Source: Promethearchaeota archaeon
GTDB taxonomy: Archaea; Asgardarchaeota; Thorarchaeia; Thorarchaeales; Thorarchaeaceae
Direction of reading: 5' to 3'
Length of the DNA: 27,936 nucleotides
NCBI GenBank assembly: GCA_048939765.1
Contig: JBHLPF010000037.1
Span: 8,353 to 36,288 of the forward strand
Part shown: in pieces, positions 6,103 to 26,765 of the stretch
Position numbering within the stretch: the first letter of the stretch is position 1
How the letters are laid out: each line of letters opens with the position of its first letter
Position numbers and translations under genes: made by a program
The notes under the pieces: generated by a model
Database searches by the model: none
Seen by the model: only the letters and a program-made list of their open reading frames with translations
What the model was told of the DNA's origin: nothing

Positions 6103-7518
6103 TTACTCTTCTTTCCATTTGCCTTCTTGGAGATACTTTGGTATTCCGCTGGAGTCTTGTGGACCAACCTTAACAGTCCAACCAGATGTTTCTTCGGTCT
6201 CCCCACTGATTCTAGCAGCCATTCCTGGACTGATGAGAATCTTGTGCTTGACCTTCTCAGATATCTTGGATTCTTCAAGAGCTTCTGCCACCTTCTCTGC
6301 AGTCAGCTTCCTACCGGCTACTGCGGATTGGACGCTCATTCCTTCAGTATCTACCACCACAAGATAGGCGTTTACTCCTGCCTGCTTGATATCGCTCTCT
6401 ACTGTGAAGTAGGTGAGGGCAAAATTGGTGGTGTACATCACTGGCGATTCCGGCCCTACATCGCCAAACTCCTGAAGTCCAGATTCAACTGCCACCGGCT
6501 TCACAGGATCTGTATAGAGGTTGCTGCGCAGAAATGTGAGTGGCAGATCGGTCCACATGTCTAGGCTATGGATTACAATAGCATCCGAGTATCGAACTAT
6601 CATCGCTGCAGCTGTTAATACCTCATCCCATTTAGTCAACTCTGGTGCAGCACCTTCCTTGTGGTCAGCCCAAACTGAGATAGGTGTTGCAAGCAGTGGA
6701 TAGCCAACAAGCTCGTTATCCTCAATAGTCGCTGCCCTTCTGAGCTGCGTGAAGTTATCAACTGTGGTACCAAGACCCGCTCGCGAAGCAGTTCCAGGGT
6801 CGAGGACAATCTCATCGACACCCATGGCTCTTAATGTATTAACAAGACTAGCTAGGTCGTCAAGTCCGCTAGGCGCGTACGCCACCAAAGGAAGGTTGTG
6901 TTTCACAGCAATGTTTCCAACGGCTGACCACGTGTCTAACGTCGCTGCGTAAAGCAGAGGTCGCTTGTCTGCAATTACATTTGCCGCTGCTGCTAGCATC
7001 TCAGGATCTAGCGAACATAGGATGATGGGCCAATCCGTAATCTCTGTCAATTTCTTTGCACTCTTCGCGAAGGCCTGTGGGTCCTGCGACACTCCTCTAA
7101 GTGCAATCCCATCAAGTCGTAGATTCTGCCCGATATAGACGTACGTCCAATCTTCAATGGCTTTGACTCTTTGGGTCAAAGCTTCACTCTCAAGTGTATC
7201 ATCCACATCAATAAAGAAGGATATTGGATTCGAGTATCTGAGGTCATGCCTGTATAGGACTAGTTTTCCGCCAATGGAGGCTGCCTTTTCCCCCATCCCT
7301 ATGACTACTTCTCTTACTGGAGGACGAATGAGATCTTCAAGCTTCGTGAGCTTCTTGGCATACTTAGCCTCTTTGTATAGAGGCGTACAAGCAGCCAGCT
7401 TCACTGTATACTCAGCTAGCTTGGTTGCAAAAGCCATGCAATTGGCCTCACCGCACTCTTGGCAATTGGTACCGGGCAATAGAGGATAGATGTCCAACGG
7501 ACCTGGGAGCTTCGCCAC
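6103..7518 (-). CDS. cdhE: Acetyl-CoA decarbonylase/synthase gamma subunit (corrinoid Fe-S protein, large subunit)
   Basis: LPGTNCQECGEANCMAFA Fe-S motif, LYTDPVKP, TTNFALTYFTVESD, GPQDSSGIPKYL. Confidence 0.96.
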   Translation of the reverse strand: MAKLPGPLDIYPLLPGTNCQECGEANCMAFATKLAEYTVKLAACTPLYKEAKYAKKLTKLEDLIRPPVREVVIGMGEKAASIGGKLVLYRHDLRYSNPISFFIDVDDTLESEALTQRVKAIEDWTYVYIGQNLRLDGIALRGVSQDPQAFAKSAKKLTEITDWPIILCSLDPEMLAAAANVIADKRPLLYAATLDTWSAVGNIAVKHNLPLVAYAPSGLDDLASLVNTLRAMGVDEIVLDPGTASRAGLGTTVDNFTQLRRAATIEDNELVGYPLLATPISVWADHKEGAAPELTKWDEVLTAAAMIVRYSDAIVIHSLDMWTDLPLTFLRSNLYTDPVKPVAVESGLQEFGDVGPESPVMYTTNFALTYFTVESDIKQAGVNAYLVVVDTEGMSVQSAVAGRKLTAEKVAEALEESKISEKVKHKILISPGMAARISGETEETSGWTVKVGPQDSSGIPKYLQEGKWKEE

Positions 7519-10116: not shown

Positions 10117-10665
10117 TCATTTTCCTCCTCCTACAAATTCTGCGATTTCATCAAGCACAGTATGCCACTGCTTCTCCTTCATGTTTGGGAAGGACCAATC
10201 TGCATGCGGTTGGTAGTATCGCCCCAGGGAAATTGTCGTCAGATGGGTCCCAAAGTTCATTGTCGCGGAAAGCAGTGTCCATTGCATATAGTACGGAATT
10301 CCAAAGACCATGAGTAGATCGTGGGGACCCTTGCCAGTTGGGCCAGTCCACGCCTCATCCTGAAGATAGAATGCGACTTCCATGGCACCCATAGACTTTG
10401 CACCAGTGAAGCCCTTCTCAAGAAAAGCCTTGATGGTTCCGCCTGTGGCAATCACAGGCATCTTGCCTGCCTCTGCAAGAGATATCGCAAAATCTATCAT
10501 ATCGCCCTTTCCATGCTTCTCACTCACAGCCTCGGATCCCACTACAAGCAGTGGCTTCTTAGTGTTCTTGAAGGCCCTCTTTAGTTGGTCCACCTTTGTG
10601 AGTGATTTTGCACTTTCAGGGCCGCAGATCTCACCAGTCTGCCATGGTACCGGGCGCATGACCAT
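10117..10665 (-). CDS. cdhB: CO dehydrogenase epsilon subunit
   Basis: KKPLLVVG, WTGPTGKGPHDL, YYQPHADWSFPN; lies between cdhA and cdhC and shares a TGATG overlap with cdhA. Confidence 0.93.
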   Translation of the reverse strand: MVMRPVPWQTGEICGPESAKSLTKVDQLKRAFKNTKKPLLVVGSEAVSEKHGKGDMIDFAISLAEAGKMPVIATGGTIKAFLEKGFTGAKSMGAMEVAFYLQDEAWTGPTGKGPHDLLMVFGIPYYMQWTLLSATMNFGTHLTTISLGRYYQPHADWSFPNMKEKQWHTVLDEIAEFVGGGK

Positions 10666-13007
10666 CAGGTACCACCTCCCATGACCTGCTCCTTGAGGAG
10701 CGTCGGGTCAGGAATCTTCCGTTCCTTCCACTTGTTCTCCTTCATCTGGGCAAGAATCTTGTCCTTGAGAGTGATTGGTATGTCAGAATCTCGCCTGATG
10801 TAGGTCCAGACATCCTCCGGGAAGTACCCATAGGCATTCTCATGGATATCGATATAGTGGCTCAGCTTGATCGAGCGACCCTTACTGGTATCATTGGGTC
10901 GGATGCAAAGCTTAGCGGTGAGCACATTGGCCTCATCAACGGTCTCAGCTGCATAGAAAAGATGCTCTGGGCCAGGTGCAGTCTGAACTCTGTCCCCAGT
11001 TCTGGCATCCCAAACAACCCAATCACGATCGTGATCGACTCTGCCGAGTAGCATTCTTCGATACTTGGATCCATGAGGGCCGACAATGACAGGCACTCCA
11101 AGTCTCCAGAATCCTGCTGCAATTGATGCTGCCTTTTGGGACATTGCGCCCCATGAGATTCCCACTGCACCCACTCGATTGTGGATATAGTCTGCAATCT
11201 CAGCATAATTGCCCCGTAAGTTCCTCTTAGCGAAGATTGCTGCAATCTTGATTGCAGCTCCTGCTATGTGAGAATTAGCGACGCATGAACCAACATTCAC
11301 AACGCCGCCAGCATCAAATTCACCGTGTCTTCGTTCATAGATAGATTGACCATTCTCATCTTTGACGTGGCCCGCGGATATCGCAGCGCAACCTGATGTC
11401 ACGATGATGTACCGGCGTTTGGCAAACTCCTCGGCCATGTCATGAACAGCCTTTCCGCCGCCTGGATAGTTGGCACATCCAACATGCGCGATGACACCGG
11501 GTATTTCGCCAAAGACAATTGGCTGACCAACACGACGGATTTCAGTATCTTGGATAGCTCCTCTCCCTGTACGAACAATATGGGTCTCGTTCTTGCAGGA
11601 TTCTTCAGATACTGCCACCATCCAGCTATGGAGCTCGTAGTCATTAGGACAGGCTGACTCGCATCTAGCACATCCGATGCAGTTCTCATATACATCTCTC
11701 AATGGTTGCATATTCCCTGTCTGAGCTGCTAGAACGGCATCCATCACATTCTGATCGTTAGGACAGGCTCTGATGCACTCACTGCATTTCTTGCACTCCT
11801 CAGCCATCTTCTGAATCTGTTTTGTCGTGGGGAAGAACTTCATCTTTCGACGCTTTGGCTTGAGGGCTATTGCAACTTTAGCTGCTACTTCACCGACCTT
11901 GTGCTCATCACCAATATACGCTCCAGGAATCTTGAATGACGTAAGTTCCTCAACGATTGAGGCAACTGAATCATCAGTTCGATCCGGTAGACCCATCAGC
12001 GCCTTATCACTAGTCGAGATGACTGGTGCCTTGACTTTCTGTGCCTCTTTCACGACATCGGTTCTGACACATTGTTCATCCACTACGACAACATCGGCTT
12101 TTCCACCTCGTATAAACCGGAGCTGCCATGATATTGGACCGATCACCTTGGCCTTGGGATCATGACGTGTCATGTCCCAAGCAGTACAGCACATACCTCC
12201 AACTTCTACCTGATCGTTTATTCGCTTCTCAGTGATGTAGTCGGTTATCGCTGCCGCAGGGATAATATTGTGGCCTATCGTCAGAACTATGGCTTTGTTT
12301 GTATCCATCATCCCAATACCTGATTCAACAAGAGGCGCATCTGGATCAGCCTGAGGCATGCCAAGCGTGGAAACTTGTGCGAGATCTGCTATTTCCATGC
12401 TTAGCTGATCAATCATGCCTGCATGGAAGACCTTGCTCTCGAAATCCATCCAGCTGCCTTCCTGACCCGTGGCCGTAGCTGAGAGCGTGTGAGCCAATTG
12501 AGTTTCACAGTAATCAAGAATCAAGCTCGCATCCTCCAGTGTACGAGGACGCATTCCAGTCACTAGACGTGATACTGGAGCATGAATCTCAGTTCCCGGT
12601 CCTTGTATAAGCTCAGTCCGAGGGCCAAATTCCTCTATTAGGTGGTCTACAAGATGTCTTGAGTGAGCAAGGTGTGCTGAGCAGCCTATATTTGCTGCAG
12701 CAAGCACGATCCTGCCCTGCTGACCCTTGATATCCAACCCGCATGCTCCACGCTTATCCCCTGACAGATCACACTTGCCCATAGTACAAAGACAACAGAC
12801 CTGGCAATAGGGCATGTAGCTGGGTTGATACTTCGTCAGAATCTTATGGTCCCAAGAGCGAAGGGTGGTTGGGCCAGGCATTGGAGTTGGGCCCATAGGC
12901 TCATCCCACTCATCGTCGATAATCTGACCGATTCTGACCTCAAGGCCTTTGAAGACACCGAGACCGGTTCTAGCTTCATCAGCTTTGAAGTGTGCTTCTT
13001 TCTTCAT
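10665..13007 (-). CDS. cdhA: CO dehydrogenase alpha subunit (archaeal CdhA)
   Basis: MGPTPMP, CQVCCLCTMGKC, IGHN, GMCCT, DEQC, two ferredoxin-type motifs, VGCAN, TSGC, VGSCVAN, SQKA. Confidence 0.97.
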   Translation of the reverse strand: MKKEAHFKADEARTGLGVFKGLEVRIGQIIDDEWDEPMGPTPMPGPTTLRSWDHKILTKYQPSYMPYCQVCCLCTMGKCDLSGDKRGACGLDIKGQQGRIVLAAANIGCSAHLAHSRHLVDHLIEEFGPRTELIQGPGTEIHAPVSRLVTGMRPRTLEDASLILDYCETQLAHTLSATATGQEGSWMDFESKVFHAGMIDQLSMEIADLAQVSTLGMPQADPDAPLVESGIGMMDTNKAIVLTIGHNIIPAAAITDYITEKRINDQVEVGGMCCTAWDMTRHDPKAKVIGPISWQLRFIRGGKADVVVVDEQCVRTDVVKEAQKVKAPVISTSDKALMGLPDRTDDSVASIVEELTSFKIPGAYIGDEHKVGEVAAKVAIALKPKRRKMKFFPTTKQIQKMAEECKKCSECIRACPNDQNVMDAVLAAQTGNMQPLRDVYENCIGCARCESACPNDYELHSWMVAVSEESCKNETHIVRTGRGAIQDTEIRRVGQPIVFGEIPGVIAHVGCANYPGGGKAVHDMAEEFAKRRYIIVTSGCAAISAGHVKDENGQSIYERRHGEFDAGGVVNVGSCVANSHIAGAAIKIAAIFAKRNLRGNYAEIADYIHNRVGAVGISWGAMSQKAASIAAGFWRLGVPVIVGPHGSKYRRMLLGRVDHDRDWVVWDARTGDRVQTAPGPEHLFYAAETVDEANVLTAKLCIRPNDTSKGRSIKLSHYIDIHENAYGYFPEDVWTYIRRDSDIPITLKDKILAQMKENKWKERKIPDPTLLKEQVMGGGT

Positions 13008-13193: not shown

Positions 13194-13991
13194 TCAATCT
13201 CGAAGCTCATCTATCAGACGCGATTTTATCGCTCTGATTGCGTTCATTCCTGGAGAATTTGGATCCAAGTCAATGGGAGCTATCCCCTTTCGGTCAGCGG
13301 CTTTAATTGATTCATCCAAAGGTACTACCCCGAGTAGGGGTATACCTTCTGCTTCAACTCTATCCCTAATCATTGCCTCATCTTCAGGGCTGGCGATCTT
13401 ATTTCCAACTGCCAAAATTCGTCCCACATTGATGTCTAATGCGAGTTTCTTGATCTTGGAAAGAATTCTCAGAGACCTTCGTCCAGGCTCTGCAACAACA
13501 ATAAGAGCGTCCATTCCTGTCGTGGTACCCCTACCCAAGTTCTCCACACCTGCATCCATGTCCATCACAAACGCCTCATCTGAACCTATAACAAGAAAGC
13601 GCATCAATGCCTTGAGCATGGTTGCTGATGGACACATGCATCCAGATCCTCCCATTTCAACAGTTCCAGCCACTAGCAAGCTGACATTGTCAGGCCCTTC
13701 AACCGCAAATTGCTCACTCAAGTCATCCACTTGTGGATTTAGTTTGAATACCTCCTTGTAGGAGCCCGCACCTGAGATCTCCATTCGCTCTTTCAGCAAT
13801 TCCTCATTCTCTGTTAAAGGAACGATCTTCTCGGCCTCTTCAGCTGGAATGCCAATTGCAGACCAGAGAGTATAGCTTGGGTCCGCATCCACTGCAAGAA
13901 TGCTCAATCCATCCTGTCCCAAGAGACGAGCGAGAGTACCAGCTACTGTAGTCTTCCCAACGCCTCCTTTTCCTGCAACTGCTATTTTCAT
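13194..13991 (-). CDS. cooC: CODH nickel-insertion ATPase CooC (second paralogue)
   Basis: MKIAVAGKGGVGKT, VDADP, GSGCMCP, DMDAGVENLGRGT. Confidence 0.92.
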   Translation of the reverse strand: MKIAVAGKGGVGKTTVAGTLARLLGQDGLSILAVDADPSYTLWSAIGIPAEEAEKIVPLTENEELLKERMEISGAGSYKEVFKLNPQVDDLSEQFAVEGPDNVSLLVAGTVEMGGSGCMCPSATMLKALMRFLVIGSDEAFVMDMDAGVENLGRGTTTGMDALIVVAEPGRRSLRILSKIKKLALDINVGRILAVGNKIASPEDEAMIRDRVEAEGIPLLGVVPLDESIKAADRKGIAPIDLDPNSPGMNAIRAIKSRLIDELRD

Positions 13992-13994
13992 TGT

Positions 13995-15230
13995 CTAATC
14001 CTTCCTCTTAGTCACAAGATCATGTAGTCTAGTTAGCACATCTGATTCGTCAACGAACTTCTTGGGTTGTCCAGACCAGCGTTTGAATGATACTTCAGCA
14101 TAGTCTAGTCTTTGCATAGTTCCGGAGCCAAGAAGCATACTATTAGTTGTATGAATGGAAACCATCGCTCTACGACCTGTAATGCTACCGGGCGAGCCAA
14201 CATAGATTGTAGGTAGGCGTGCAAGTGCTTTAACTGCAGGCCCTGGAAGGTTCAATAGCGTGTCATCACCGACTACAAGGACCGCATCAAACTCGCCAGC
14301 GACCAATTTGGAAAGCGTATTGCCTGTATCAGGACCAGCTGTTTTCCGAGCGACTCCCATGATATTGGGTTCTGTTGCCATAGGCAAAGCGAATGCCTTT
14401 TTCCCGGTCCCTCTTATCGCCTCGACGAGCATCCTCAGTCCAGAAAGGTTCTCCTCCGCAGCTCCTGAGTTAATCAATCCACTCCCATAGAATATCACTG
14501 TACAATCTGACTTCTGCATATTACGAACAAGCCCAAGAAGCTCCTGGGCAGGAATGCCAACTACATCGCCAGTGATGGGGCCTTTTCCTGTGATATCAGA
14601 TGACAACGCATCAAGAAGTTCAGCGTCAGCTCCGGGCGGGATTATCAGTCGGTGATTAGCCATCTTCATTGTTTCGGTATTCCGAACATCCACAACGCCA
14701 ATTGTCCTGCTCTCTATCCCTTCTGGGATATTCTCACCACGAGGCAAAACTGCAAATTTGCTTGGATGTCGATGACTGCTCTCTGTTGGGTCCGAGCCCC
14801 AGTATAGAATGAATTCGCCATTGTTCCTGACATAGTCTAGATCGATTTCAAGTTGCATGGAATGAAGTTCATGACTCAATGCCTTAGTCATCCCAAGACT
14901 AGCAAGTGTATCAAAGGTAGCACCCAAAGAGCTTGCCAACTCAAGCCCTTTTGAGATTGCTTCATCTGTTGAGTGAGACCATCCAAAAAGCAGAGGGCTC
15001 TCTGCTGCACGTAGAATCTCTGCTGCCTTCTCCAAAGCCACATCCAGAGAAACCGTCTTTTCTGTTCCATCGTCATGAATGGCGGATTTCGCATCCAGAT
15101 GCTCAATCGTGGACACTAGATGCTGATGGCCAAGCCTGCAGAGTCCCAGAGAGTTGATCTCACCACCTTTGACTTCTGCGGAAACATCATCACAAAGCAA
15201 AGCGCATCCACTACAGACGATATCTTCCAT
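13995..15230 (-). CDS. fwdB: Formylmethanofuran dehydrogenase subunit B-like protein lacking the W/Mo-ligating Cys/Sec
   Basis: N-terminal CSGCALLCDD...CRLG [4Fe-4S] motif, PLLFGWS, YWGSDP, VVDVRNTET, GTMQRLD. The usual SxCHGP is replaced by ASLGMTK. Start set at ATG 15230. Confidence 0.8.
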   Translation of the reverse strand: MEDIVCSGCALLCDDVSAEVKGGEINSLGLCRLGHQHLVSTIEHLDAKSAIHDDGTEKTVSLDVALEKAAEILRAAESPLLFGWSHSTDEAISKGLELASSLGATFDTLASLGMTKALSHELHSMQLEIDLDYVRNNGEFILYWGSDPTESSHRHPSKFAVLPRGENIPEGIESRTIGVVDVRNTETMKMANHRLIIPPGADAELLDALSSDITGKGPITGDVVGIPAQELLGLVRNMQKSDCTVIFYGSGLINSGAAEENLSGLRMLVEAIRGTGKKAFALPMATEPNIMGVARKTAGPDTGNTLSKLVAGEFDAVLVVGDDTLLNLPGPAVKALARLPTIYVGSPGSITGRRAMVSIHTTNSMLLGSGTMQRLDYAEVSFKRWSGQPKKFVDESDVLTRLHDLVTKRKD

Positions 15231-15238
15231 ACTATCAC

Positions 15239-15697
15239 CTACCAAATCTCTATGGCATCGGTACAGCAATACTGCTCACAGACTCTACAATTGAGACGAT
15301 CGGGGGGAAATCGTCTGCACTTCTCTAGATTGATTATCTTTGAGATTCCATTCTCAACGATGAATACCGTGTCGCGGCTTTTTCCTGCTTTTCCATGACT
15401 TGTTTCAGGCTCAACTGCAACATCTACCGGACAGACCACAACGCAATTGCCACAACCCGTGCATTTTGTTTCATCGAGTTTTATTCCCGTTTCTTCAGCA
15501 GACTGCAGTGGCGCAACAAGGGCTCTTAGCTTCTCAAGGTTCTTCTCAAATCCCTCCTCTAGAAGGGGAGGGCAGTCATCTGGAAGGATGTCTCCCAGCG
15601 CCATCTTTGTGGCAAAAGCCATGCAGGTCTTTGGTTCGCATAGACGGCAGTTTGTCTTGGGTAGTAGATTGTACAGCTCCATGGGATTGAGTTTCAA
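15239..15697 (-). CDS. fwdG: FwdG-like ferredoxin with an extra N-terminal Fe-S domain
   Basis: LLPKTNCRLCEPKTCMAFA (CdhE-type Fe-S domain) plus KCTGCGNCVVVCPV...GK...IVENG...NCRVCEQYCC. Probable TTG start at 15697 behind GAGGGAG. Confidence 0.75.
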   Translation of the reverse strand: MKLNPMELYNLLPKTNCRLCEPKTCMAFATKMALGDILPDDCPPLLEEGFEKNLEKLRALVAPLQSAEETGIKLDETKCTGCGNCVVVCPVDVAVEPETSHGKAGKSRDTVFIVENGISKIINLEKCRRFPPDRLNCRVCEQYCCTDAIEIW

Positions 15698-15971
15698 GTC
15701 TTCTGGTCTCCCTCGACTGATGCATAAACACCGGTCATTGCCTGTTGGAACCGAGATTTCTACTAAAAAGAATGATGCGGTATGGCACAGCGCCTCTTGA
15801 GATAGCAAGTTCCCAAGCTATCAGAGTCTTCTTATCGTGGTAGGTTTGTTCTGAATCCTAAATGCTCACACTTATACTTGAAAGAAAGAAGCTCAACAAG
15901 TTGAAAGACCAAAGTAACACAAACAATCAGATAACACTCGACCCTAGAGTCTTTGTCATGATTAGGTGGAT

Positions 15972-18410
15972 ATGGTGAGTCGCAAAAAGAAAGGCAAAAG
16001 GAAGAAGGAAGAAAAGACTGACAAGACTGCAGTCTATCTCTGCCGTTGCGGCTCAAACATCGCAGATACTATAGATATTGACTCACTGAGAGACAAGTAT
16101 GAATCCCAGGGGATATCTCTTGTCGAAGTGAATGACCATTTCTGTTCAGAACAGGGTGTTGTTGACCTGATCAAGTCCATCAAGAAGGGCAAGGTGGACA
16201 GAGCAGTTATAGCCGCATGTTCACCTCTACTCCATAGAGAGCTATTCTCTGATGCTGTAAAAGAGGCAGGCCTCAATCCAGGACACCTCCATATGGCAAA
16301 CATCCGAGAACAATGCAGTTGGGTCCATTATGACGATTCGAAAGTAGCCACTGCGAAGGCTGCAGCGATTATTGACACTGGACTTGCCAAAGTGCGCGAC
16401 TCATATCCCATCACCACACATGATGTTCCTATCACACAGAAGGCACTTGTCATTGGTGGCGGTGTTGCGGGTCTAACCACTGCACTGGAACTCGCTGATT
16501 CCGGCATAAGCACAGTGGTGGTAGAGAGAGAGGGCTTTCTTGGAGGGCACATGGCAAAATGGGACAAGCTGTTCCCAACGTTCGACTGTGGAATCTGTAT
16601 CCTTGGACCTCTGATGGCACGGGTTTCAAGGCATGAGAATATTCAGATTTCGACCTTGACCGACATCATAGATGTGAGAGGCGCAGTAGGCCACTATAAT
16701 GTGACTCTGAGGAAACGGGCCAGATATGTTGACATCGAGTCCTGCACCGGCTGCAACAAGTGTATCGAGGTATGTCCAGTAGAAGTAGCAGACGAGTACA
16801 ACTACGGTCTCGGGAAGAGGAAGGCCATGGTACGGCCCTTGATTGACGCTATTCCCCTTGCACCATATATCGATACCGAGAACTGTATCGGATGCCAATC
16901 TTGTGCAGGAGTCTGTGAGCCAAAATCGCTAAGATATGAGGAAGAAGAGTCTACCGAAACTATCACTGTAGGAGCCATTGTTCTAGCAACAGGTTTCATG
17001 CCATTCGACCCTCGAATAGTGGAGGAGCTTGGGTATGGAGAGAATCCCGATGTCATAACATCACTCGAACTCGAGAGGCTGTTGAATCCAGGCGGACCGA
17101 GTGGGGGCAAGCTCGTCAGGCCATCAAACGGTAAGACTCCCAATAGGGTCGTATTCATCCCATGTGTGGGGAGCCGTTCCGAGCGCTTTGGGCGACCGTA
17201 CTGTAGCAGAGCCTGCTGTACTGCCTCTGTGAAAGAAGTAGTTCAAATAAAACAGCAGATCCCGGAGGCAGAGGCTTATGTCTTCCATTCTGACATGAGG
17301 ACCTTCGGAAAGGGGCATGAAGAGCTGCAAGTCCGTGCAGCGAAGGAATACAAGGTCAATTTCATTCGAGGTGCAGTAGGCGAGGTAGTTCTAGACCCAG
17401 TTACGGGGCGGACAAGTATTCGTGCAGAAGACATCACACTTGGGCGACATCTCGAGATGGACGTAGACCTAGTTGTTCTTATGGTTGGAATGGATGCGGA
17501 ACCAAGCAATATCGCGCTTTCAAGACTACTCAAAGTGCCGCTGGATGAGAATGGCTTTTTCCTTGAGCAGCATCCCAAGCTAGGACCCAGTACCACCCCA
17601 ACGAAGGGTGTCTTTCTCTCAGGAGTGGCTCAAGGGCCAAAAGACATCTCAGACACTGTAGCTCATGCCGGGCTTGCAGCATCAAAGGTCAAGACATTGC
17701 TCGCGAGCGGAAAGGTGATTACTGAGGCTTGTGTGCCATCCTTTGACCCATCATTATGCATCAGCTGCCGTCTGTGTGAACAGACCTGCACGCCCGATGC
17801 AATCTCATTCAATGATGAAAAACATCCATTCATCAATATGGCTGCATGTAGAGGATGTGGATCGTGTGCGGCTGCATGTCCCTCCGGGGCTCTTGATCTT
17901 CCATGTCTCACAAACGAGCAGTTATTGAGCGCAACAAAAGCAGCAATAGAAAACAACCCTTTGAAACCAGCCATCGTGGGATATCTCTGCCGATGGTGCG
18001 CATATGGAGCTGCGGATAGGGCCGGAACTGCAAGGATCACCTATCCACCGAATATAATTCCAATACAAGTTCCATGTACAGGACGCCTGAATGTGGAGAC
18101 TGTTATGACTGCGTTCGCAGAAGGCGCCGATGGTGTGGCAGTCATGGGGTGCCACATTCAAGATTGTCATTATCGGTCAGGCGCCAGATACGCACAGAAC
18201 AGGATGAGCAAAGTGAGAGAGCTACTCAAGGCCTCGGGAATCGATGGAAGTCGCCTGTACTTTGGTAGCGCTTCAGCCTCTGAGGCAGATAGCTTTGCAG
18301 AACAGGTGACAAGATTCGTAAACAGAATTACACGGCTCGGACCATTGGGTAGAGAGATGGTGGAGAAACCCATTGTCAAACCTCCTGTGAAAGAGGCAGT
18401 GGGAGGCTAG
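15972..18410 (+). CDS. hdrA: Heterodisulfide reductase subunit A fused to a C-terminal MvhD [2Fe-2S] domain
   Basis: CRCGSNIA, ACSP, NIREQCSWVH, GGGVAG FAD motif, FPTFDCGIC, CVGSR...YCSRACC, GPKDI. The C-terminal YLCRWCAYGAAD, PCTGR and GCHIQDCHY motifs are MvhD. Confidence 0.93.
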   Translation: MVSRKKKGKRKKEEKTDKTAVYLCRCGSNIADTIDIDSLRDKYESQGISLVEVNDHFCSEQGVVDLIKSIKKGKVDRAVIAACSPLLHRELFSDAVKEAGLNPGHLHMANIREQCSWVHYDDSKVATAKAAAIIDTGLAKVRDSYPITTHDVPITQKALVIGGGVAGLTTALELADSGISTVVVEREGFLGGHMAKWDKLFPTFDCGICILGPLMARVSRHENIQISTLTDIIDVRGAVGHYNVTLRKRARYVDIESCTGCNKCIEVCPVEVADEYNYGLGKRKAMVRPLIDAIPLAPYIDTENCIGCQSCAGVCEPKSLRYEEEESTETITVGAIVLATGFMPFDPRIVEELGYGENPDVITSLELERLLNPGGPSGGKLVRPSNGKTPNRVVFIPCVGSRSERFGRPYCSRACCTASVKEVVQIKQQIPEAEAYVFHSDMRTFGKGHEELQVRAAKEYKVNFIRGAVGEVVLDPVTGRTSIRAEDITLGRHLEMDVDLVVLMVGMDAEPSNIALSRLLKVPLDENGFFLEQHPKLGPSTTPTKGVFLSGVAQGPKDISDTVAHAGLAASKVKTLLASGKVITEACVPSFDPSLCISCRLCEQTCTPDAISFNDEKHPFINMAACRGCGSCAAACPSGALDLPCLTNEQLLSATKAAIENNPLKPAIVGYLCRWCAYGAADRAGTARITYPPNIIPIQVPCTGRLNVETVMTAFAEGADGVAVMGCHIQDCHYRSGARYAQNRMSKVRELLKASGIDGSRLYFGSASASEADSFAEQVTRFVNRITRLGPLGREMVEKPIVKPPVKEAVGG

Positions 18411-18414
18411 CCTC

Positions 18415-19767
18415 ATGTCACGACGAAATGTCACTGTTGGTGAGAAGCCAATCGTGTCTATGGATATCGATGAGGGAAAAGTCAAGCTCGAATGGAAGAC
18501 TTCTCTGCTGAAGAAGACGCTTGACCATGTGATTGACAGATGCGTGGGCTGCAGTCTATGTCTACCCTGCCCTTGGGAGGCAATTACACTCGGACCAGTT
18601 CAGGAAACAGCAGCGGGGAGAATTGAGGGGGCGCCTCTCGTAAATGTAGACCCTGAGCTCTGTACCTTCTGCGGACTCTGCGACTCTTCCTGTATCTTCA
18701 AGGCCTTCGAGGCTAGATACGAGGGAGAAGGAGCAATCAATGACTTTGTTGACATTGATGGGGTTCATAGAATTGACGAGGAGAAATGTGCTCCATGTCT
18801 TCTCTGTGAAAAGGTCTGTCCTACTGGTTCTCTGCATGCTGAAGTGAAGATCGACTGGAAGAAGGACCTAGTCAAATACGAAGGTGAGGAGTCAGCCAAG
18901 GGTACGATAAAGATAGACGAGGACAAATGTTCCCTCTGTGGGCTATGTGAACTTCTATGTCCAGAGGCCATCAAGATTTACTGGTCAGACTCAGCGGAGC
19001 CGCCAGACTTCAGACCAGCAGTGAGTATAAGAGCTATTGATGAGGAATGCGACTACTGTGGCTTGTGCGCAAAGATATGCCCTGATGAGGCCATCACAGT
19101 CGAATGCACAGAGTCCAGCCCTCGAACCATCAAGGAGCCTACCATCTCAGGCACCCTACAGCACAATGATGAAACCTGCGTCAAATGCGGCCTCTGCGCG
19201 CAAGTCTGTCCGTATGATGCTCTTGAAGTCAAGAAACCGTTCTCTGGAGAGCTTGTTGTTGCAAGGCGTGACAAGTGTGACCCGATTGGCTGCCATAATT
19301 GCTTCAACATCTGCCCAGTCAAAGCAATCTATCCCACAGGAACTGATGAGAAGATTGCCATAACTGACAACTGCGTCTACTGCGGTGCATGTGAACACTC
19401 CTGTCCATATGACGTCCTGGAAACTAGGCGTGAGGGTTACAATGTTCAGGAACTCGAAAAGGTACGCGAATGGGAGAAGGCACGGAGGCTGTTCTTCGAG
19501 GCTGTCATCGGCAAAGATCCACCCAAGAGTGGGCTATTTGAGAGAGATATAACTGTTCTAGCGGCTGAGAGGGCACGAGTCAATATACGAGAGGGACAGG
19601 GTTGGGAAGAGGATGATGCCATTCGTGAGAAGGCCATTAAAATTGCCAAGCATACGCTAAACCTTCTGAAGTCAAGTCCAAGGCTAACCCTGCAAGTGGA
19701 AAGGGGTCAACTCGATAAGGTTGTTGAGAAAATCAAGGGGCCTCCAGAAGCGAGTCGAGAGAAGTAA
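18415..19767 (+). CDS. fwdF: Polyferredoxin FwdF-like
   Basis: About eight CxxCxxCxxxCP-type motifs; the N-terminal CPWEAITLGP...GRIEGAPLVNVD is FwdF-like. Confidence 0.82.
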   Translation: MSRRNVTVGEKPIVSMDIDEGKVKLEWKTSLLKKTLDHVIDRCVGCSLCLPCPWEAITLGPVQETAAGRIEGAPLVNVDPELCTFCGLCDSSCIFKAFEARYEGEGAINDFVDIDGVHRIDEEKCAPCLLCEKVCPTGSLHAEVKIDWKKDLVKYEGEESAKGTIKIDEDKCSLCGLCELLCPEAIKIYWSDSAEPPDFRPAVSIRAIDEECDYCGLCAKICPDEAITVECTESSPRTIKEPTISGTLQHNDETCVKCGLCAQVCPYDALEVKKPFSGELVVARRDKCDPIGCHNCFNICPVKAIYPTGTDEKIAITDNCVYCGACEHSCPYDVLETRREGYNVQELEKVREWEKARRLFFEAVIGKDPPKSGLFERDITVLAAERARVNIREGQGWEEDDAIREKAIKIAKHTLNLLKSSPRLTLQVERGQLDKVVEKIKGPPEASREK

Positions 19768-20131
19768 CCTTGTCATCTGTCTTTGTGGCAGTTATCTTAA
19801 TACCATGCATCTTCGGCGGTGATCTGTCTGTCGGGACAGCAACGAGAGAAAGAGCCCAAGGACCACGAGGCATTGATGCTACACCATCCGCAAGCCGTTC
19901 ATCAACATAACCACTCACAATGACTTGAGCAGTGCCCGATTTGATATTGACAGAGCCGCTCTCCTTAATTCCTAGCCTCTGGAAGTCACTCTTGCTGAAG
20001 GACACCCTGGCTGCGATGTTCTGATACTCTTTTGAGCTCTTGTCCTTTTGAGCTTCGATATCAACCTCAAAGGAATGAGCTATCATTAATTTCAATTCAA
20101 GATGTGGAAAGAGAAAATCACCTAACGCCAT
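19733..20131 (-). CDS. fwdD: FwdD-like molybdopterin-dinucleotide-binding-domain protein, degenerate
   Basis: DFQRLGIKESGSVNIKS...GVASMPRGPWA...TD...TDDKV matches the FwdD pattern; the usual TGR and GPWAN residues are altered. Confidence 0.72.
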   Translation of the reverse strand: MALGDFLFPHLELKLMIAHSFEVDIEAQKDKSSKEYQNIAARVSFSKSDFQRLGIKESGSVNIKSGTAQVIVSGYVDERLADGVASMPRGPWALSLVAVPTDRSPPKMHGIKITATKTDDKVTSLDSLLEAP

Positions 20132-20158: not shown

Positions 20159-20725
20159 TTAGGTCAGACCACCTGCTTCTAGGATTTTAATAGCTAGTTC
20201 GAGGAAAGACGCCTCAACATTATAACCAGTCTTTGCTGAGGTTTCAAGAAAGCTTGTGTGAACACCGCGCTCTCTAATCCGACCTGCAAGAGCTTCGCCC
20301 TCCGCTGTCGTGACAAGGGTCTGCTGCATCACTGGATTGTCCTTGAACTGGTCTCTGAGGTCGATCTTATTGCCTATTAGAACGATTGGTATCTTCTTAC
20401 CTGCATTGTTCCAGCACTCGTCAAGCCAGTTTTCGATGTTATCAAATGATATACGTTCCACAGTTGAATAGACAGCCAATGCACCCTGCGCACCCCTGTA
20501 GAATGTAGAACGTACATTCTTGAAATGCTCTTGCCCGGCAAGATCCCAGATTTGAATGCTGACATCATGTCCGCCCTCAAGGCTCATCTTCTTGACAGCG
20601 AAGTCAGCTCCAATGGTGATCATATAGTTGGCTTTGAAGCTCTCACCCATATACCGTCGTCTAAGACTTGTCTTCCCTACCGAGCCGTCGCCCATCAAGA
20701 TCACTTTGAAGAGTGCTGAGACCAT
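20159..20725 (-). CDS. Rab-like small GTPase with an insertion after G4
   Basis: GDGSVGKT, TIGADF, IQIWDLAGQ, FYRGA, NKID, ETSAK. Confidence 0.93.
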   Translation of the reverse strand: MVSALFKVILMGDGSVGKTSLRRRYMGESFKANYMITIGADFAVKKMSLEGGHDVSIQIWDLAGQEHFKNVRSTFYRGAQGALAVYSTVERISFDNIENWLDECWNNAGKKIPIVLIGNKIDLRDQFKDNPVMQQTLVTTAEGEALAGRIRERGVHTSFLETSAKTGYNVEASFLELAIKILEAGGLT

Positions 20726-20870
20726 CTAAAGACCTCCTCGTGCCCATGTTCGGGAACTAAGGCGGTATTTTACGTTTGTGCTATTTGAGTCTATGTCGAT
20801 TGAATGAACTGTCAATTTTGACATAACCAAAGATACAAAGATGATTGCCGCAATGGCCTGATGACCTGCA

Positions 20871-21515
20871 ATGGCGGATGATATTCTAGAGTATTGGATG
20901 GCTGAAGCGCGCGAACTCGCCTCAAGGTTCAATGTTGAGGAATTCGATAAGAGCTCGGCGTTCTGGAACTGGGACAATTTCGGAAAGGAAATTGTCAAGC
21001 TTAAGAAAGTCTTGAATCTGGGAGAAGAGTATCTAGATATTCTCGGGCTTAGAGTCGACTTCGAAACTGGTAAGACAGAGGACCTGCTAACAGGCAAAGA
21101 GTTTCAAACAAGCCGATTACTCCCTCATCTCTACTACTACACGAAGGCGAAGGATGTGGGAGTTGCTGGTGAGTGGTCCAAATATAATGCCCTCCAAGGC
21201 TCTTGGGCGTGTAGATATTCTTACGACGAGGAAGATATCAAAGCACTGACTACTGTTTTTCTCGAGAAAAGGGAACAGCTCTTCGATACTCTTGAGAGAC
21301 TTGGAGCCAAGAGAGTGGACCACGGGGATGCGGGATTCGAGCTGGAGTTCCTTCCAAAGGTCAAGGTGTTAATCATATTCGAGAACGAAGATGATGAGTT
21401 CCCGGCTAGTGTTCGGCTTTTGTATGACAAGAACTCGATTTACTACCAACCGCATGAGATGCTCGGTGAAATCAGCTGGTTCCTAGCTTCCCGAGTGTTC
21501 AAGGCTTTAGCATAG
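20871..21515 (+). CDS. DUF3786-domain protein
   Basis: GDAGFELEFLPKVKVLIIFENEDDEFPASVRLLYD is the characteristic DUF3786 C-terminal motif. Confidence 0.75.
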   Translation: MADDILEYWMAEARELASRFNVEEFDKSSAFWNWDNFGKEIVKLKKVLNLGEEYLDILGLRVDFETGKTEDLLTGKEFQTSRLLPHLYYYTKAKDVGVAGEWSKYNALQGSWACRYSYDEEDIKALTTVFLEKREQLFDTLERLGAKRVDHGDAGFELEFLPKVKVLIIFENEDDEFPASVRLLYDKNSIYYQPHEMLGEISWFLASRVFKALA

Positions 21516-23138: not shown

Positions 23139-25432
23139 TGAAGCAAGTCGGATGGCTCCTTGATGCCACCGTCGACTACAAGAATCAGGCACTGACGCTG
23201 TGGATCAAGGCCAGTGGGAAGACCCGTGGATATGTGTACAAAGAGTTCCACCCCTCAGTCTTTGTCAGTCGCGAGAAGAAGAGAGGACTGGACTGGAGTT
23301 ATGATGACATCCTCAAAGCGGCCCGTGCACATCCCAAGGTGACGAAGACAAGATTCACTCAGAAGCGTGTCAGTGTCTATGATCAAGAGATGAGCCGCGT
23401 ATTGGAGGTCTTCACTACACCAGATGCCCACAGGGAAGTGGCAGGAGACCTAGAACAGATTCCTGGAGTCACCGTGTTTCACGGAGACATCGACCCTGTG
23501 CATCAGTTCTTCATCCACGACGACATCTTCCCATTTGGCAAGGTTGTCTTCGAGTCGAAGGGAAACACTGTCACTGCGATAAGATGCATCGACAGGCGAG
23601 AGGACACTGACTATGAGATGCCAGACCTTGAGGAGATAGGCTTTGAGGTGTTCGTTGATGCCAGACGGGTCTTTCCCAGAATTGAGGACAAGATTCACCA
23701 CATTGACGTATATCATAAGGGACTGACCATTCGAATTGAGGGCGAGAGTGAGAGGGAGATTCTAGAAGAGTTTCAGAGGACCGTCGACGGAATTGACCCA
23801 GATGTGATAGTCACCAGGGATGGGGATGCGACGCTGTTCAGATACCTGACATTGCGAGCAAAGCTAAATGGCGTGCAGCTTGTCATATCACGAAACGGAT
23901 CCCCCTTGAATGTCAAGAGTAAGGAGGGAAAATCATACTGGGTGTATAATCAGATCTTCTTCAAATCAGGCAACCAAGTCATGTTCAACGGCCGAATCCA
24001 CATTGACAGGATGCAGAGCTTCTACTACTCGCCGACGGGCCTTGAGGGCGTGATGGAGGGGTGCAGGCTCTCATATGCAAGACCACAGAAAGCATCGCGG
24101 ATGTCAATTGGCACAATCAATGCGGCTGTCCAATATTACAATGCGTACAAGATGGGAATCCTGATACCACCGGTGAAGAAGAACCCAGAGTTCCTGAAGA
24201 CTGTAACCGATCTTGCTTCCATTGATAGAGGAGGTCTCATTCTTCAACCAAAGCCAGACATCTATGAGAACATTGCTGAGTGTGACTTCTCGTCGATGTA
24301 TCCCACGTTGATGGTGACACGGAACATAAGCCCAGAAACCATCTGCACAGTTGAAGACTGTCCGGACTGTCCCACGTATTGCGTCGAGGTCCCTGAGGTG
24401 CCAATCCGTATCTGTCAACGAAAGAGAGGAATTGTGGCTCGGTCACTGGAACTGGTGTTGGAGAAACGTGAGGCCTTTACGCAGCTGATAGAACGAGGGT
24501 ATGACGCAAAGAAATACGAACGCATGCAGAACACACTCAAGGGCATACTGGTGTCATGCTTTGGATACTTGGGCTTCAGGAACGCTAGATTTGGAAGAGT
24601 AGAGGCACACACGGCAGTCACTGGACTGGCACGAGATGTACTTCTACAGACGCAAGATATCGGAGAGGAAATGGGTCTTGAACTGGTACATGGTATTGTC
24701 GACTCAGTGTGGCTCAGATCCAGAGGCAGACCTGACTATAACACACTTCGGGAGTTTTGTAGACGTGTCACGGAAGAGACCAACATCAAGATGTCCCTGA
24801 AGGGGATATTCAAGTGGATGGTTATTCCCTCATCACGACTCCACCCATCTATCGCACCATTGAATCGGTACTATGGCGTCTACACTAACGGGGGCATCAA
24901 GACACGAGGTATTGAAACTAGGCGACGAGACACCTGTCTGTATGTGGGCGATTGCCAGGCTTCAATGCTCAAGGTGCTTGCCCGCGCCCAAAACAGGGCC
25001 GAATTCATAGAGAGGATACCAGAGGCACATTTGGTATGTCAGGATTTCATTGAGAGGCTCTATAGAGGAGATGTTGACATTCGGGACTTGGTCCTGCACA
25101 ATCGACTCACACGTGAACCACGCGAGTACCGTGCGACATCAAGAGCGGCAATAGTTGCTCAGCAGCTCGTGGAGAGCGGTCGAGAATTACATGCAGGACA
25201 GAAGGTACGTTATGTTCTCGTGAGCGCAGACTCAGAGAGCCCTCTGCGTCGTGTCAGGGCACTCGAGCTATTTGATGACGCCACGAGATATGACCCCGGG
25301 GCATATGCGGACCTCTGCCTTAGAGCATTTGAGAATCTGATACCACATCAGTTTCTTGAAGAACAGGATTTGCCCTCCAAAGAGGATGTTCTAGCGCATG
25401 CGCCGAAACTCCGAGGACTTTCTACTCAGTGA
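23135..25432 (+). CDS. polB2: Family B DNA polymerase, archaeal PolB2 (Dpo2-like) group, exonuclease-degenerate
   Basis: Motif A DFSSMYP, motif B QNTLKGILVSCFGYLG, motif C HGIVDSVW (instead of YGDTDS), NRYYG, RGIETRRRD; ExoI and ExoII acidic motifs are degenerate. Confidence 0.88.
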   Translation: MMKQVGWLLDATVDYKNQALTLWIKASGKTRGYVYKEFHPSVFVSREKKRGLDWSYDDILKAARAHPKVTKTRFTQKRVSVYDQEMSRVLEVFTTPDAHREVAGDLEQIPGVTVFHGDIDPVHQFFIHDDIFPFGKVVFESKGNTVTAIRCIDRREDTDYEMPDLEEIGFEVFVDARRVFPRIEDKIHHIDVYHKGLTIRIEGESEREILEEFQRTVDGIDPDVIVTRDGDATLFRYLTLRAKLNGVQLVISRNGSPLNVKSKEGKSYWVYNQIFFKSGNQVMFNGRIHIDRMQSFYYSPTGLEGVMEGCRLSYARPQKASRMSIGTINAAVQYYNAYKMGILIPPVKKNPEFLKTVTDLASIDRGGLILQPKPDIYENIAECDFSSMYPTLMVTRNISPETICTVEDCPDCPTYCVEVPEVPIRICQRKRGIVARSLELVLEKREAFTQLIERGYDAKKYERMQNTLKGILVSCFGYLGFRNARFGRVEAHTAVTGLARDVLLQTQDIGEEMGLELVHGIVDSVWLRSRGRPDYNTLREFCRRVTEETNIKMSLKGIFKWMVIPSSRLHPSIAPLNRYYGVYTNGGIKTRGIETRRRDTCLYVGDCQASMLKVLARAQNRAEFIERIPEAHLVCQDFIERLYRGDVDIRDLVLHNRLTREPREYRATSRAAIVAQQLVESGRELHAGQKVRYVLVSADSESPLRRVRALELFDDATRYDPGAYADLCLRAFENLIPHQFLEEQDLPSKEDVLAHAPKLRGLSTQ

Positions 25433-26765
25433 TAGCGTGCGCCTGCATAGCAATTCTGGGCTTGAGCTCACGTACTGGAATGCCAGTTTCCTTGGAGACC
25501 TTCATGACGTCATCAGCCTCAGGTTTGATGTTGATTATACTCCCATCAACACCACGAGAGACCTTGACACGGACCATGAACTCCATGCCCTCGATTTCCA
25601 TCTTACACACAATGGTCTCTCTTGCGGCCTTGAGTCGGTCCCAAGTTGTGTATCGAATTCCCAAGGTTCCAAGATGCCTGATCATGATTTCTGCGATTTT
25701 CTGCAATGCCGATTTAGCTGCAATCACCTTGACTACATAAGCAGGACGATTCTTCTTTCCATAGGCAGGAATCATCACCACATCATAAGCAAGGCCCTCT
25801 GACAGGAGGGTATCGAACATGGTTCCCATTATCTCGCCATCAATGTCATCAACATTGGTTTCGATAACGATTACTTCATCCGCACTCCATGAATCAATCA
25901 TCCCAAATCTATCCTCCTTTTTCTTCGTCGGTGCAGCTTTTTTCTTTGCAGGCTCTTTCTTGGGTGGTGCTTTCTTGGTTGGCTTCTTTGTTTCAGGTCT
26001 TGCCTCATCAGTAAACTCGCCGACAATGACCCTCATTCGATTAGCCACATCGCCCAGGTCACGAGAACCAAAACCAACACCTTGTTGCCTTACCATGAAG
26101 CCTTCCGATGATTCCACGAACTCAGTTGCTAATGTTACCAAAAGGGCAGCGCCTGTCGGCGTTAGGACCTCGGTCTTTGCTTCGCCCATTATGAATGGAA
26201 CATCATTTGCCACAAGTATCTCAGCTACGGCAGGAACAGGCACCTCGAGGGGGCCATGGTCTGTTTGTATGGTGCCGCTCCCGACCGCCACATGAGTGGC
26301 AATAATCTTTGTATCAGCAAGAAGGCCCGAACGTTCCATGAGATATGCAGTTCCAATCAAATCGAGGATTGTATCGACCGAACCGGTTTCGTGAAGATGC
26401 AGCTTGTCTATTGGGGTTTCATGTGCTCTCGATTCAGCCTGCAGAATCTCATCCAATGCCCTCTGAGCTATTTGCTTCGCGGGGGGTGATAGCTCCAATT
26501 CCTCGGCAACTGCATCTAGCATCTCAATCAAGTCATTTGCCCTGAAGCGTATGCCAGAGTCCTTTGAAACCTCTAATCGAACCCCTGACTCGTCACCCAC
26601 AGTCTTAGTGGTGAATCGAACCCTCAATGCTGGATCGTAAAGCAATAGACTAGCAGCCACGGGAAGAAGAGCATCGTCTTCACTCAGAAAATCGACTAAT
26701 GCAGATAGAAACATGTCCCCTGATGTGCCAGCAGTCCTGACATCAATAAGGACGGTTCGTGTCAA
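25422..26765 (-). CDS. larC: Nickel-pincer nucleotide cofactor nickel insertase LarC (DUF111)
   Basis: AGTSGDMFLSAL, HLHETGSVD, HGPLEVPVPA, TPTGAALL, GFGSRD, IETNVDD, KKNRP, TLGIR, KPE. Confidence 0.9.
   Translation of the reverse strand: MTRTVLIDVRTAGTSGDMFLSALVDFLSEDDALLPVAASLLLYDPALRVRFTTKTVGDESGVRLEVSKDSGIRFRANDLIEMLDAVAEELELSPPAKQIAQRALDEILQAESRAHETPIDKLHLHETGSVDTILDLIGTAYLMERSGLLADTKIIATHVAVGSGTIQTDHGPLEVPVPAVAEILVANDVPFIMGEAKTEVLTPTGAALLVTLATEFVESSEGFMVRQQGVGFGSRDLGDVANRMRVIVGEFTDEARPETKKPTKKAPPKKEPAKKKAAPTKKKEDRFGMIDSWSADEVIVIETNVDDIDGEIMGTMFDTLLSEGLAYDVVMIPAYGKKNRPAYVVKVIAAKSALQKIAEIMIRHLGTLGIRYTTWDRLKAARETIVCKMEIEGMEFMVRVKVSRGVDGSIINIKPEADDVMKVSKETGIPVRELKPRIAMQAHAITE

Follow-up and report, generated by a model that had tools for sequence, protein, structure and literature searches.

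We analysed a stretch of 27,936 nucleotides (the window) from a Promethearchaeota archaeon of the family Thorarchaeaceae (GenBank assembly GCA_048939765.1, contig JBHLPF010000037.1, G000:C49 in our numbering, positions 8353-36288), whose source metagenome-assembled genome (MAG) comprises 3.37 Mb and is 88.5% complete. Next to its genes for the archaeal CODH/ACS (carbon monoxide dehydrogenase/acetyl-CoA synthase), the window carries five genes for an HdrA-MvhD fusion, a FwdF-like polyferredoxin and relatives of FwdG, FwdB and FwdD, which we designate FwdG', FwdB' and FwdD'. These five genes probably encode one soluble flavin/Fe-S module that is catalytically disabled and serves CODH/ACS as an Fe-S relay or scaffold, with a subunit set that derives from the Hdr-Fmd/Fwd type of methanogen machine (PDB 7BKB and 5T5I). 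The core of this idea, a disabled FwdB/FwdD pair within an HdrA-MvhD/polyferredoxin module genetically tied to CODH/ACS, had been put forward in an earlier note on the sequence, and it is upheld here by synteny, co-occurrence with CdhA, purifying selection and an intact predicted fold. Two further points were new relative to that note: FwdB' has lost a His, an Arg and an 18-residue loop besides the ligand Cys, and within a widespread second group of FwdB paralogues, all of which lack the catalytic Arg, the module makes up the branch found in Thorarchaeota.

Residues lost and kept in FwdB' and FwdD'

In an alignment to M. wolfeii FwdB (5T5I_B), the segment TLASLGMTKA of FwdB' was placed opposite NTASVCHGPS. 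The position of the Cys that ligates W or Mo is thus occupied by Gly, and its codon at 14892-14894 is GGG (DNA ctt-ggg-atg), exactly as the earlier note had read it. With this codon and a frame without TGA, a hidden selenocysteine was ruled out. The His that follows the ligand Cys is replaced by Met, the catalytic Arg of PMRGH by Ala (PMATEPN, with the GH pair after the Arg also lost), and the GYPxxVDFxRGxP loop of 18 residues is deleted. The N-terminal CxxCxxxC...C motif for a [4Fe-4S] cluster, which had been described as retained, is indeed intact (CSGCALLC...C). FwdB' scored 250.5 bits against TIGR03129, under the curated cut-off of 327.8, while the canonical copy of the same genome reached 552.7. 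When canonical conserved positions were defined as those at least 85% conserved across 15 canonical Cys/His/Arg FwdB sequences (78 positions), the Thorarchaeota family had kept 32 of the 78 versus 46 in Cys-bearing members of the same paralogue clade. The predicted fold is the three-domain fold of FwdB: the AlphaFold2 model, built from a 52-sequence alignment, had a mean predicted local distance difference test (pLDDT) score of 91.7, and it superposed on the FwdB chains 8RJA_B, 5T5M_B/5T5I_B and 7BKB_H at template modelling (TM) scores of 0.88-0.89.

FwdD', a protein of 132 residues without any Cys, has AHS in place of the S/TGRT motif. It was also said to have lost GPWAN; this part of the claim did not hold, as GPWA is kept (PRGPWAL) and only the Asn is changed, to Leu. 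Its NF042908 score of 50.4 bits lies under the cut-off of 175, and its PF01568 score of 31.7 bits lies above the cut-off of 26.8. Judged from these sequences, the W/Mo-pterin CO2-reducing site of FwdB/FwdD appears to have been dismantled in Thorarchaeota, and we infer that the pterin is absent.

We judge it unlikely that a pterin or some other cofactor is still bound by FwdB' and FwdD', be it without a protein ligand or with one other than Cys, and that the two proteins carry out a new HdrA-fed redox reaction, for example on a C1 or sulfur compound. Such a role would fit the two domain II motifs WGSDPxESxHRHP and VVDVRxTETMKMAN, which are nearly invariant in the FwdB' family, the score of FwdD' above the Pfam Molydop_binding cut-off, the Glu of Hermodarchaeota and the Asp or Glu of many Thorarchaeota near the former ligand position, and dN/dS ratios (omega) well under 1. 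However, Gly occupies the ligand position in 97% of the Thorarchaeota family; the residue two positions upstream varies (S/D/N/I/Q/E), so that there is no conserved substitute ligand; besides the His, the Arg and the active-site loop, 59% of the positions invariant in canonical FwdB have been lost; and the clade lost the Cys several times independently (to Gly, Glu, Tyr and Thr). Putative bacterial Cys-less FwdB homologues, which were not individually confirmed as FhcB, keep these domain II motifs too, and we therefore set aside the retention of WGxDP/HPRH and DxR as a sign of pterin binding. The neighbouring Ser, which the earlier note had offered as a possible metal ligand, was rejected as a substitute: canonical FwdB has the same Ser.

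Conservation and selection

The loss of the ligand is a property of the whole family. In all 120 homologue clusters (at least 51% identity) the ligand Cys was absent, being replaced mostly by Gly and in a few by Ala or Ser, and in all 120 the Fe-S cysteines were kept, with the four-Cys motif present in 97-100% of the sampled Thorarchaeota-family members. In a comparison with the closest relative (85% amino-acid identity, dS about 0.6-0.7), omega was 0.137 for fwdB' and 0.076 for fwdD', and 0.03-0.045 for hdrA, the polyferredoxin gene, cooC and cdhA. Because of these values we conclude that fwdB' and fwdD' are under purifying selection, which on fwdB' is about threefold more relaxed than on its neighbours.

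These results refuted the idea that the genes are decaying pseudogenes or an assembly artefact, to which we assign next to no probability. Decay would agree with fwdB' being the fastest-evolving gene of the cluster and with one Thorarchaeota chromosome (L085) that carries truncated pieces only. Against it stand frames that are unbroken in over 120 homologue clusters and in 34 genomes, as they had been reported to be in the window, omega values of 0.08-0.14, a confidently predicted fold, and the recovery of 44-74% of the sampled words of the stretch in metagenome runs of no fewer than two additional studies. The variant of this idea in which close relatives retain the Cys and the present copy is degenerating fails on the 120 Cys-less clusters and on the omega of 0.137.

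Synteny and co-occurrence with CODH/ACS

FwdB' was searched for in 301 Asgard genomes, and gene contexts were inspected within +/-10 kb of its homologues. At 50% identity or more it was found in five genera of the window's family, and a clade at 35-42% identity in a second family corresponds to Hermodarchaeota. The order fwdD'<polyFd<hdrA-mvhD<>fwdG'>fwdB'>cooC>cdhABCDE>cooC2 (polyFd, polyferredoxin gene) recurred in 11 of 11 Thorarchaeota loci from the five genera, and Hermodarchaeota have the same five-gene core with cooC and cdhA downstream. The divergent arrangement of fwdG' and hdrA-mvhD was seen in all loci examined from both lineages, and cooC was syntenic in every one of their loci that reached that far. 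The five-gene core also occurred in a Baldrarchaeota MAG, an unclassified 'Promethearchaeota' lineage, Bathyarchaeia, other Thermoproteota and a Kor3-labelled (Korarchaeota) MAG, often with cdhA adjacent. In Methanosarcinales, fwdG'-fwdB'-fwdD' form one operon, which in Methanosarcina sp. Ant1 lies about 2 kb from hdrA-mvhD-polyFd, and in a Methanoperedens MAG fwdG2B2D2 is divergent from cdhABC.

Among the Thorarchaeaceae genomes sampled in both the FwdB' and the CdhA searches, 34 had both proteins, five had CdhA without FwdB' and one had FwdB' without CdhA, counts that are descriptive and not a test, as these MAGs are related, incomplete and not independent. In four of the five CdhA-only genomes cdhA lies at a contig end, and the fifth appears, by the range of the model matched, to carry only a second cdhA type; the single FwdB'-only genome holds nothing more than a truncated relic. 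Neither protein was found in ten genera, and members of seven of these still have canonical FwdB. Because of this pattern, FwdB' tracks CODH/ACS (CdhA) within the Thorarchaeaceae, and not the canonical Fwd/methanofuran step. The relic (L085 7672-11053 in CP070658.1, the Thorarchaeota bin8 chromosome, G242), in a genome that is a single contig without a CdhA match, retains HdrA-MvhD up to residue 501, the whole of FwdG', and the first 183 residues of FwdB', which run on into unrelated sequence.

A second FwdB paralogue group with graded losses

We placed FwdB' in a tree of 61 sequences (maximum likelihood, quick search, LG+C20) with support from the Shimodaira-Hasegawa-like approximate likelihood-ratio test (SH-aLRT). 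A 'B2' clade was split at 99% from a group made up of canonical FwdB/FmdB and the bacterial Cys-less representatives, and within the B2 clade an Hdr-linked subclade (99%) united Bathyarchaeia, Kor3/Thermoproteota, Baldrarchaeota, one Nitrososphaerota-labelled MAG, Hermodarchaeota and Thorarchaeota, the last two being sisters with 97% support. The B2 clade also holds the FwdB of the Methanosarcina fwdG2B2D2 type.

The catalytic Arg is absent from every B2 member. The B2 copies of Jordarchaeia and Freyarchaeota, which lie beside a fwdA-like gene, keep Cys-His and the loop; the ligand Cys is also kept in Baldrarchaeota, and most copies from Bathyarchaeia and other Thermoproteota, Kor3 included, have Cys-His. 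In Methanosarcinales FwdB2 (loci L114, L119, L106, L115, L117, L121, L122 and L129) the ligand Cys is followed by Gln, or by Leu or Phe in two Methanosarcina MAGs, and Val replaces the catalytic Arg; since both the His and the catalytic Arg are replaced, the competence of this protein as a CO2 reductase seems doubtful. The Cys was lost separately to Gly in Thorarchaeota, to Glu in Hermodarchaeota, to Tyr in two Bathyarchaeia (Hecatellales; L094 329-1600 and L099 7878-8948) and to Thr in one Helarchaeota member (L105 9887-11158). Among Hdr-linked members the loop has degenerated, and it is deleted from some of the Thorarchaeota copies, that of the window among them. On this alignment evidence the catalytic apparatus is eroded by degrees within a clade that keeps the Fe-S site and its partners.

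Canonical Fwd genes and other modules in the same genome

The earlier note had called for a search of the rest of the genome for canonical copies, and these were found: fwdD-fwdB-fwdA on contig C54, with a FwdB bearing SVCHG and PMRGH, ftr and fwdC-mch on contig C64, and hdrB-like genes at no fewer than nine loci scoring at least 236 bits on other contigs, where there were also numerous hdrA paralogues and, at two loci, [NiFe] hydrogenase genes. Since a canonical fwdDBA/fwdC set exists elsewhere, the window's FwdB' is by homology a second paralogue and not the organism's Fwd. Canonical FwdB likewise occurred alongside the paralogue in five of five further genomes (two Methanothrix-type, Methanosarcina, Methanococcoides and Bathyarchaeota).

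These findings bear on the suggestion, also made earlier, of an Fhc-like complex, in which cofactor-less FwdB and FwdD would be structural subunits of a formyltransferase/hydrolase that interconverts formate and formyl-methanofuran or formyl-tetrahydromethanopterin (H4MPT). FhcB is a cofactor-less FwdB homologue, 6S6Y_F was among the structural matches of FwdB', and an H4MPT pathway (ftr, mch) is encoded in the genome. We nevertheless hold this suggestion to be very improbable: the cluster contains no genes of the fhcA/C/D type; in none of over 40 loci from the Hdr-linked clade did the cluster or its surroundings contain a gene for FwdA/FhcA, FwdC/FhcC or Ftr; such fwdA, fwdC and ftr as were found sit with or near the canonical Cys-bearing fwdB; FwdB' falls in the B2 clade, split at 99% from that of the bacterial Cys-less representatives; and its phyletic pattern follows CdhA and not Fwd.

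Several other features of this genome were recorded. The canonical FwdA (L005 10888-12141, contig C54) has just 417 residues and covers model positions 2-347 of 556; fwdA matches in Bathyarchaeia loci are similarly short, and the canonical FwdA may be a short form without the C-terminal domain. The segments G000:C94:42279-45245 (L133 16280-19245) and G000:C94:47400-52120 (L134 1402-6121) hold a second cdhA-cdhB pair, encoding the alpha and epsilon subunits only (CdhA 1094 bits), and, about 2 kb from it, a second HdrA-MvhD fusion of 885 residues that is co-oriented with the small and large subunits of an Mvh-like [NiFe] hydrogenase; the genome thereby places a further CODH module next to Hdr. 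HdrA/MvhD paralogues with an in-frame TGA (in one case TAG) at G000:C86:4160-4591, G000:C37:17112-17813 and G000:C94:31629-32195 may be selenoproteins. A selenoprotein HdrA has been reported for Asgard archaea (PMC11227280).

Partner proteins and gene layout

Genes were called from the list of open reading frames (ORFs) and from hidden Markov model (HMM) scans of the window proteins (Table 1). FwdG' is a chimera. Its residues 1-50 form an N-terminal [4Fe-4S] domain of the type found in the corrinoid iron-sulfur protein (CFeSP) and in RnfB, matching CdhE/AcsC (4C1N, 2H9A), RnfB (8AHX_B) and PF04060 (E 1.8e-10), as well as positions 2-60 of NF003195 (CdhE) and the RnfB subfamily model TIGR01944; residues 66-123 form a FwdG-like 2x[4Fe-4S] ferredoxin (5T5I_G, E 8.6e-9). 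Its former description as FwdG is right for this ferredoxin part, and the protein as a whole is not a plain FwdG. The 189-residue ORF with its TTG start is probably too long, and homologues and the domain start favour M43.

The HdrA-MvhD fusion spans positions 2-776 of the 777 of NF040770 (HdrA2). Because its 895 bits fall below the curated 1100, we class it by this model as a relative and not as an equivalog. It has an N-terminal Cys domain, inserted and C-terminal ferredoxin domains and an MvhD [2Fe-2S] domain, with four ferredoxin-type CxxCxxCxxxC motifs, further Cys-rich stretches and the GxGxxG motif for FAD. The polyferredoxin contains 33 Cys, with six CxxCxxCxxxC and two variant motifs for about eight [4Fe-4S] clusters, and ends in a Cys-free C-terminal tail; its match to 5T5I_F (E 1e-47) runs over residues 66-342, and its NF042909 score of 209 bits is under the cut-off of 375. 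Counted from sequence, the module would thus offer about eight [4Fe-4S] clusters in the polyferredoxin, three in FwdG', one in FwdB' and none in FwdD'.

FwdB' probably starts at M14 (15230), which matches the 411 residues of all homologues. With this start the gap between fwdG' and fwdB' is 8 nt and that between fwdB' and cooC 3 nt, so the spacing given earlier is correct on that condition. The genes hdrA-mvhD and polyFd on the plus strand diverge from fwdG', and fwdD' is convergent with the polyferredoxin gene. As had been stated, HMM scans of the window ORFs found no fwdA, fwdC, hdrB or hdrC in the window. All five cdh products exceeded the curated cut-offs, CdhA with 1079 bits against TIGR00314.

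Table 1. Genes and other features of the module and its surroundings (window positions).
Feature	Position	Strand	Basis or remark
FwdB-like protein (FwdB')	ORF 13995-15269; likely 13995-15230, 411 aa	-	TIGR03129 250.5 bits, no Pfam match; 5T5I_B E 5e-41
FwdG' ('FwdG2'-type Fe-S protein)	ORF 15239-15808, 189 aa; likely 15239-15682, 147 aa	-	PF04060, 5T5I_G
Divergent intergenic region fwdG'/hdrA-mvhD	15683-15965		Presumed promoters
HdrA-MvhD fusion, HdrA2 type	15966-18410	+	NF040770 895 bits; PF02662 E 1.7e-44
FwdF-like polyferredoxin, 450 aa	18415-19767	+	NF042909 209 bits; 5T5I_F E 1e-47; 7BKB_K E 1e-40
FwdD-like protein (FwdD'), 132 aa	19733-20131	-	NF042908 50.4 bits; PF01568 31.7 bits; PDB 2KI8, 5T5I_D
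CooC-type Ni-insertion ATPase	13194-13991	-	PF01656/ParA-MinD family matches
cdhA-cdhB-cdhC-cdhD-cdhE (archaeal CODH/ACS)	13007-6103	-	TIGR00314, TIGR00315, TIGR00316/NF003379, TIGR00381, NF003195
cdhA	10665-13007	-	HMM
cdhE	6103-7518	-	HMM
Second CooC/MinD-type ATPase, last gene of cdh operon	5237-6088	-	Syntenic in Thorarchaeota loci
DUF3786 protein, neighbour of fwdD'	20871-21515	+	PF12654 E 2.5e-24

The DUF3786 gene stands beside fwdD' in 10 of 11 Thorarchaeota loci. An ORF of 123 residues at 20726-21097(-) that overlaps it has no family match and is probably spurious. Two small GTPases of the Ras/Rab family, typical Asgard signature proteins, are encoded in the window at 3338-3886(+) and 20159-20725(-) (Pfam Ras, E 1e-48 to 1e-50), and it is only in the genus of the window that the second separates fwdD' from the DUF3786 gene. 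Further genes encode a LarC-type nickel-insertion protein at 25422-26765(-) and the F420-0:gamma-glutamyl ligase CofE at 26976-27848(-), which fits the use of F420 by the organism.

A candidate electron relay for CODH/ACS

In the methanogen supercomplex 7BKB, electrons pass from the bifurcating flavin of HdrA through FmdF and FmdG/B to the CO2-reducing site. The relay that we propose for the Thorarchaeota module would follow the same path up to its last station. The FAD of the HdrA2-type subunit would split or merge electron pairs, and the low-potential branch would run through the polyferredoxin with its eight or so clusters and the three clusters of FwdG' to the single [4Fe-4S] cluster of FwdB'. 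From there electrons would be exchanged with CODH/ACS, either directly (CdhA/CdhE) or via ferredoxin, with FwdB'D' as the structural end-piece of a soluble relay. For the high-potential branch, the genome encodes many HdrBC-like pairs outside the window, one of which would serve in the way that HdrB2C2 serves M. acetivorans HdrA2. According to Yan et al. 2017 (PMC5296606), that HdrA2, itself an HdrA-MvhD fusion, works with the unlinked HdrB2C2, oxidises ferredoxin reduced by CODH/ACS and is able to bifurcate from F420H2. The same logic fits here, since the rest of the genome is rich in HdrBC-like pairs and the window contains the F420 ligase gene.

A stronger form of the proposed relay is a module that is physically docked on CODH/ACS. 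In such an Hdr-ACDS supercomplex, electrons would pass straight to the clusters of CdhA (or to CdhE for re-activation of the corrinoid) without free ferredoxin. This is a special case of our preferred explanation and corresponds to the plausible idea of an Fe-S wire from HdrA to CODH raised in the earlier note. The tight coupling of fwdG', fwdB', cooC and cdhA with gaps of 8 and 3 nt, the synteny and co-occurrence with CdhA, the N-terminal [4Fe-4S] domain type that FwdG' shares with CdhE, the divergent fwdG2B2D2 and cdhABC of Methanoperedens and the precedent of 7BKB speak in favour of docking. On the other side, the genes are not beside cdh in Methanosarcina, Methanothrix and some Bathyarchaeia, and the gene between fwdB' and cdhA is cooC, which encodes no structural subunit. 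We regard an Hdr-CODH/ACS supercomplex in Thorarchaeota and Hermodarchaeota, with Cys-bearing versions in Bathyarchaeia, Kor3-type Thermoproteota and Baldrarchaeota, as a tentative proposal that is clearly less probable than the relay or scaffold as such.

Several observations weigh against the relay or scaffold as we have described it. A protein that lacks the Cys need not lack the pterin (arsenite oxidase, for one, has no protein ligand to its Mo), and WGSDP...HRH and VDVRxTET are strongly conserved in FwdB'. The linkage to cdh is looser in Methanosarcinales and some Bathyarchaeia, the co-occurrence counts come from related and incomplete genomes, fwdB' evolves about three times faster than its neighbours, and among the data sets searched for the stretch no RNA data set was found to contain the locus. 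Finally, we infer complex formation, the direction of electron flow and the contact with CdhA or CdhE. Even so, we consider a catalytically disabled module that works for CODH/ACS to be the best explanation of the five genes.

Comparison with known systems

The closest counterpart is found in Methanosarcinales. Rohlin & Gunsalus (2010, PMC2838876) named the M. acetivorans genes fwdG2B2D2 and hdrA1-pfd; expression of fwd2 is weak there, and no role has been assigned to it. The HdrA of this set is the protein that Yan et al. (2017, PMC5296606) studied as HdrA2. The Methanosarcinales and Thorarchaeota versions share the FwdB paralogue clade (99% SH-aLRT), an upstream partner that joins a CFeSP/RnfB-type N-domain to a FwdG-like Fe-S protein, a FwdD-type partner with an N-terminal extension, and an HdrA-MvhD fusion followed by a FwdF-like polyferredoxin; in both, hdrBC is unlinked and the catalytic Arg is absent. 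However, in the Methanosarcinales proteins the ligand Cys is retained (Cys-Gln) and the TIGR03129 score, 385-490 bits, exceeds the cut-off, whereas the Thorarchaeota protein, with 250 bits, has Gly and lacks the His, the GH pair and the loop. Moreover, in Thorarchaeota and Hermodarchaeota the genes are joined in one divergent cluster with cooC-cdhABCDE.

With the Fdh/Mvh-Hdr-Fmd supercomplex of M. hungatei (7BKB) and FwdABCDFG of M. wolfeii (5T5I) the cluster has in common homologues of HdrA, FmdF/FwdF, FwdG, FwdB and FwdD. It differs in that FwdA/FwdC, HdrBC, Fdh/Mvh and hydrogenase are missing, that the W/Mo ligand and the catalytic residues are gone, and that the genomic partner is CODH/ACS. 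FhcB of Methylorubrum extorquens (6S6Y; TM 0.64/0.73) is likewise a FwdB homologue without the metal-ligating Cys and a structural subunit, but it belongs to another clade, and FwdB' has no fhcA/C/D neighbours and is linked to Hdr and CODH/ACS instead. NuoG/Nqo3 of complex I (TM 0.70-0.74) is an Fe-S-bearing or structural part with the molybdopterin-oxidoreductase fold and without the cofactor, although its homology is distant (17-18% identity) and it serves in another complex. By analogy, the cofactor-less NuoG and FhcB may be taken as precedents for an Fe-S or structural role of FwdB'D'.

Among the papers that our literature search covered, none was found on Cys-less FwdB/FwdD linked to HdrA-polyferredoxin and CODH/ACS. 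Known already are the gene set as named in Methanosarcina (PMC2838876) and the characterised HdrA2 type (PMC5296606); by comparison of sequences, the Thorarchaeota form is a conserved lineage variant of these.

Significance

Within the B2 clade, nature offers a series that leads from a metalloenzyme towards what would be an electron-transfer scaffold: first Arg-less proteins with the Cys, then loss of the Cys and then deletion of the loop, in parallel to NuoG and FhcB. The module also hints at what the uncharacterised fwdG2B2D2 genes may do in Methanosarcina, which can be manipulated genetically. If the docked arrangement is true, the supercomplex would be the CODH/ACS counterpart of the Hdr-Fmd megacomplex of methanogens, with a bifurcating HdrA2 hard-wired, via the polyferredoxin and a gutted Fwd scaffold, either to the corrinoid protein or to CdhA at its CO2/CO site. 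How low-potential electrons are supplied or disposed of in the Wood-Ljungdahl pathway of Asgard and other non-methanogenic archaea is a gap in metabolic models and hence in models of eukaryogenesis that are based on syntrophy. The conserved Hdr/polyferredoxin module, inherited along with CODH/ACS, is a concrete and testable candidate for that electron link.

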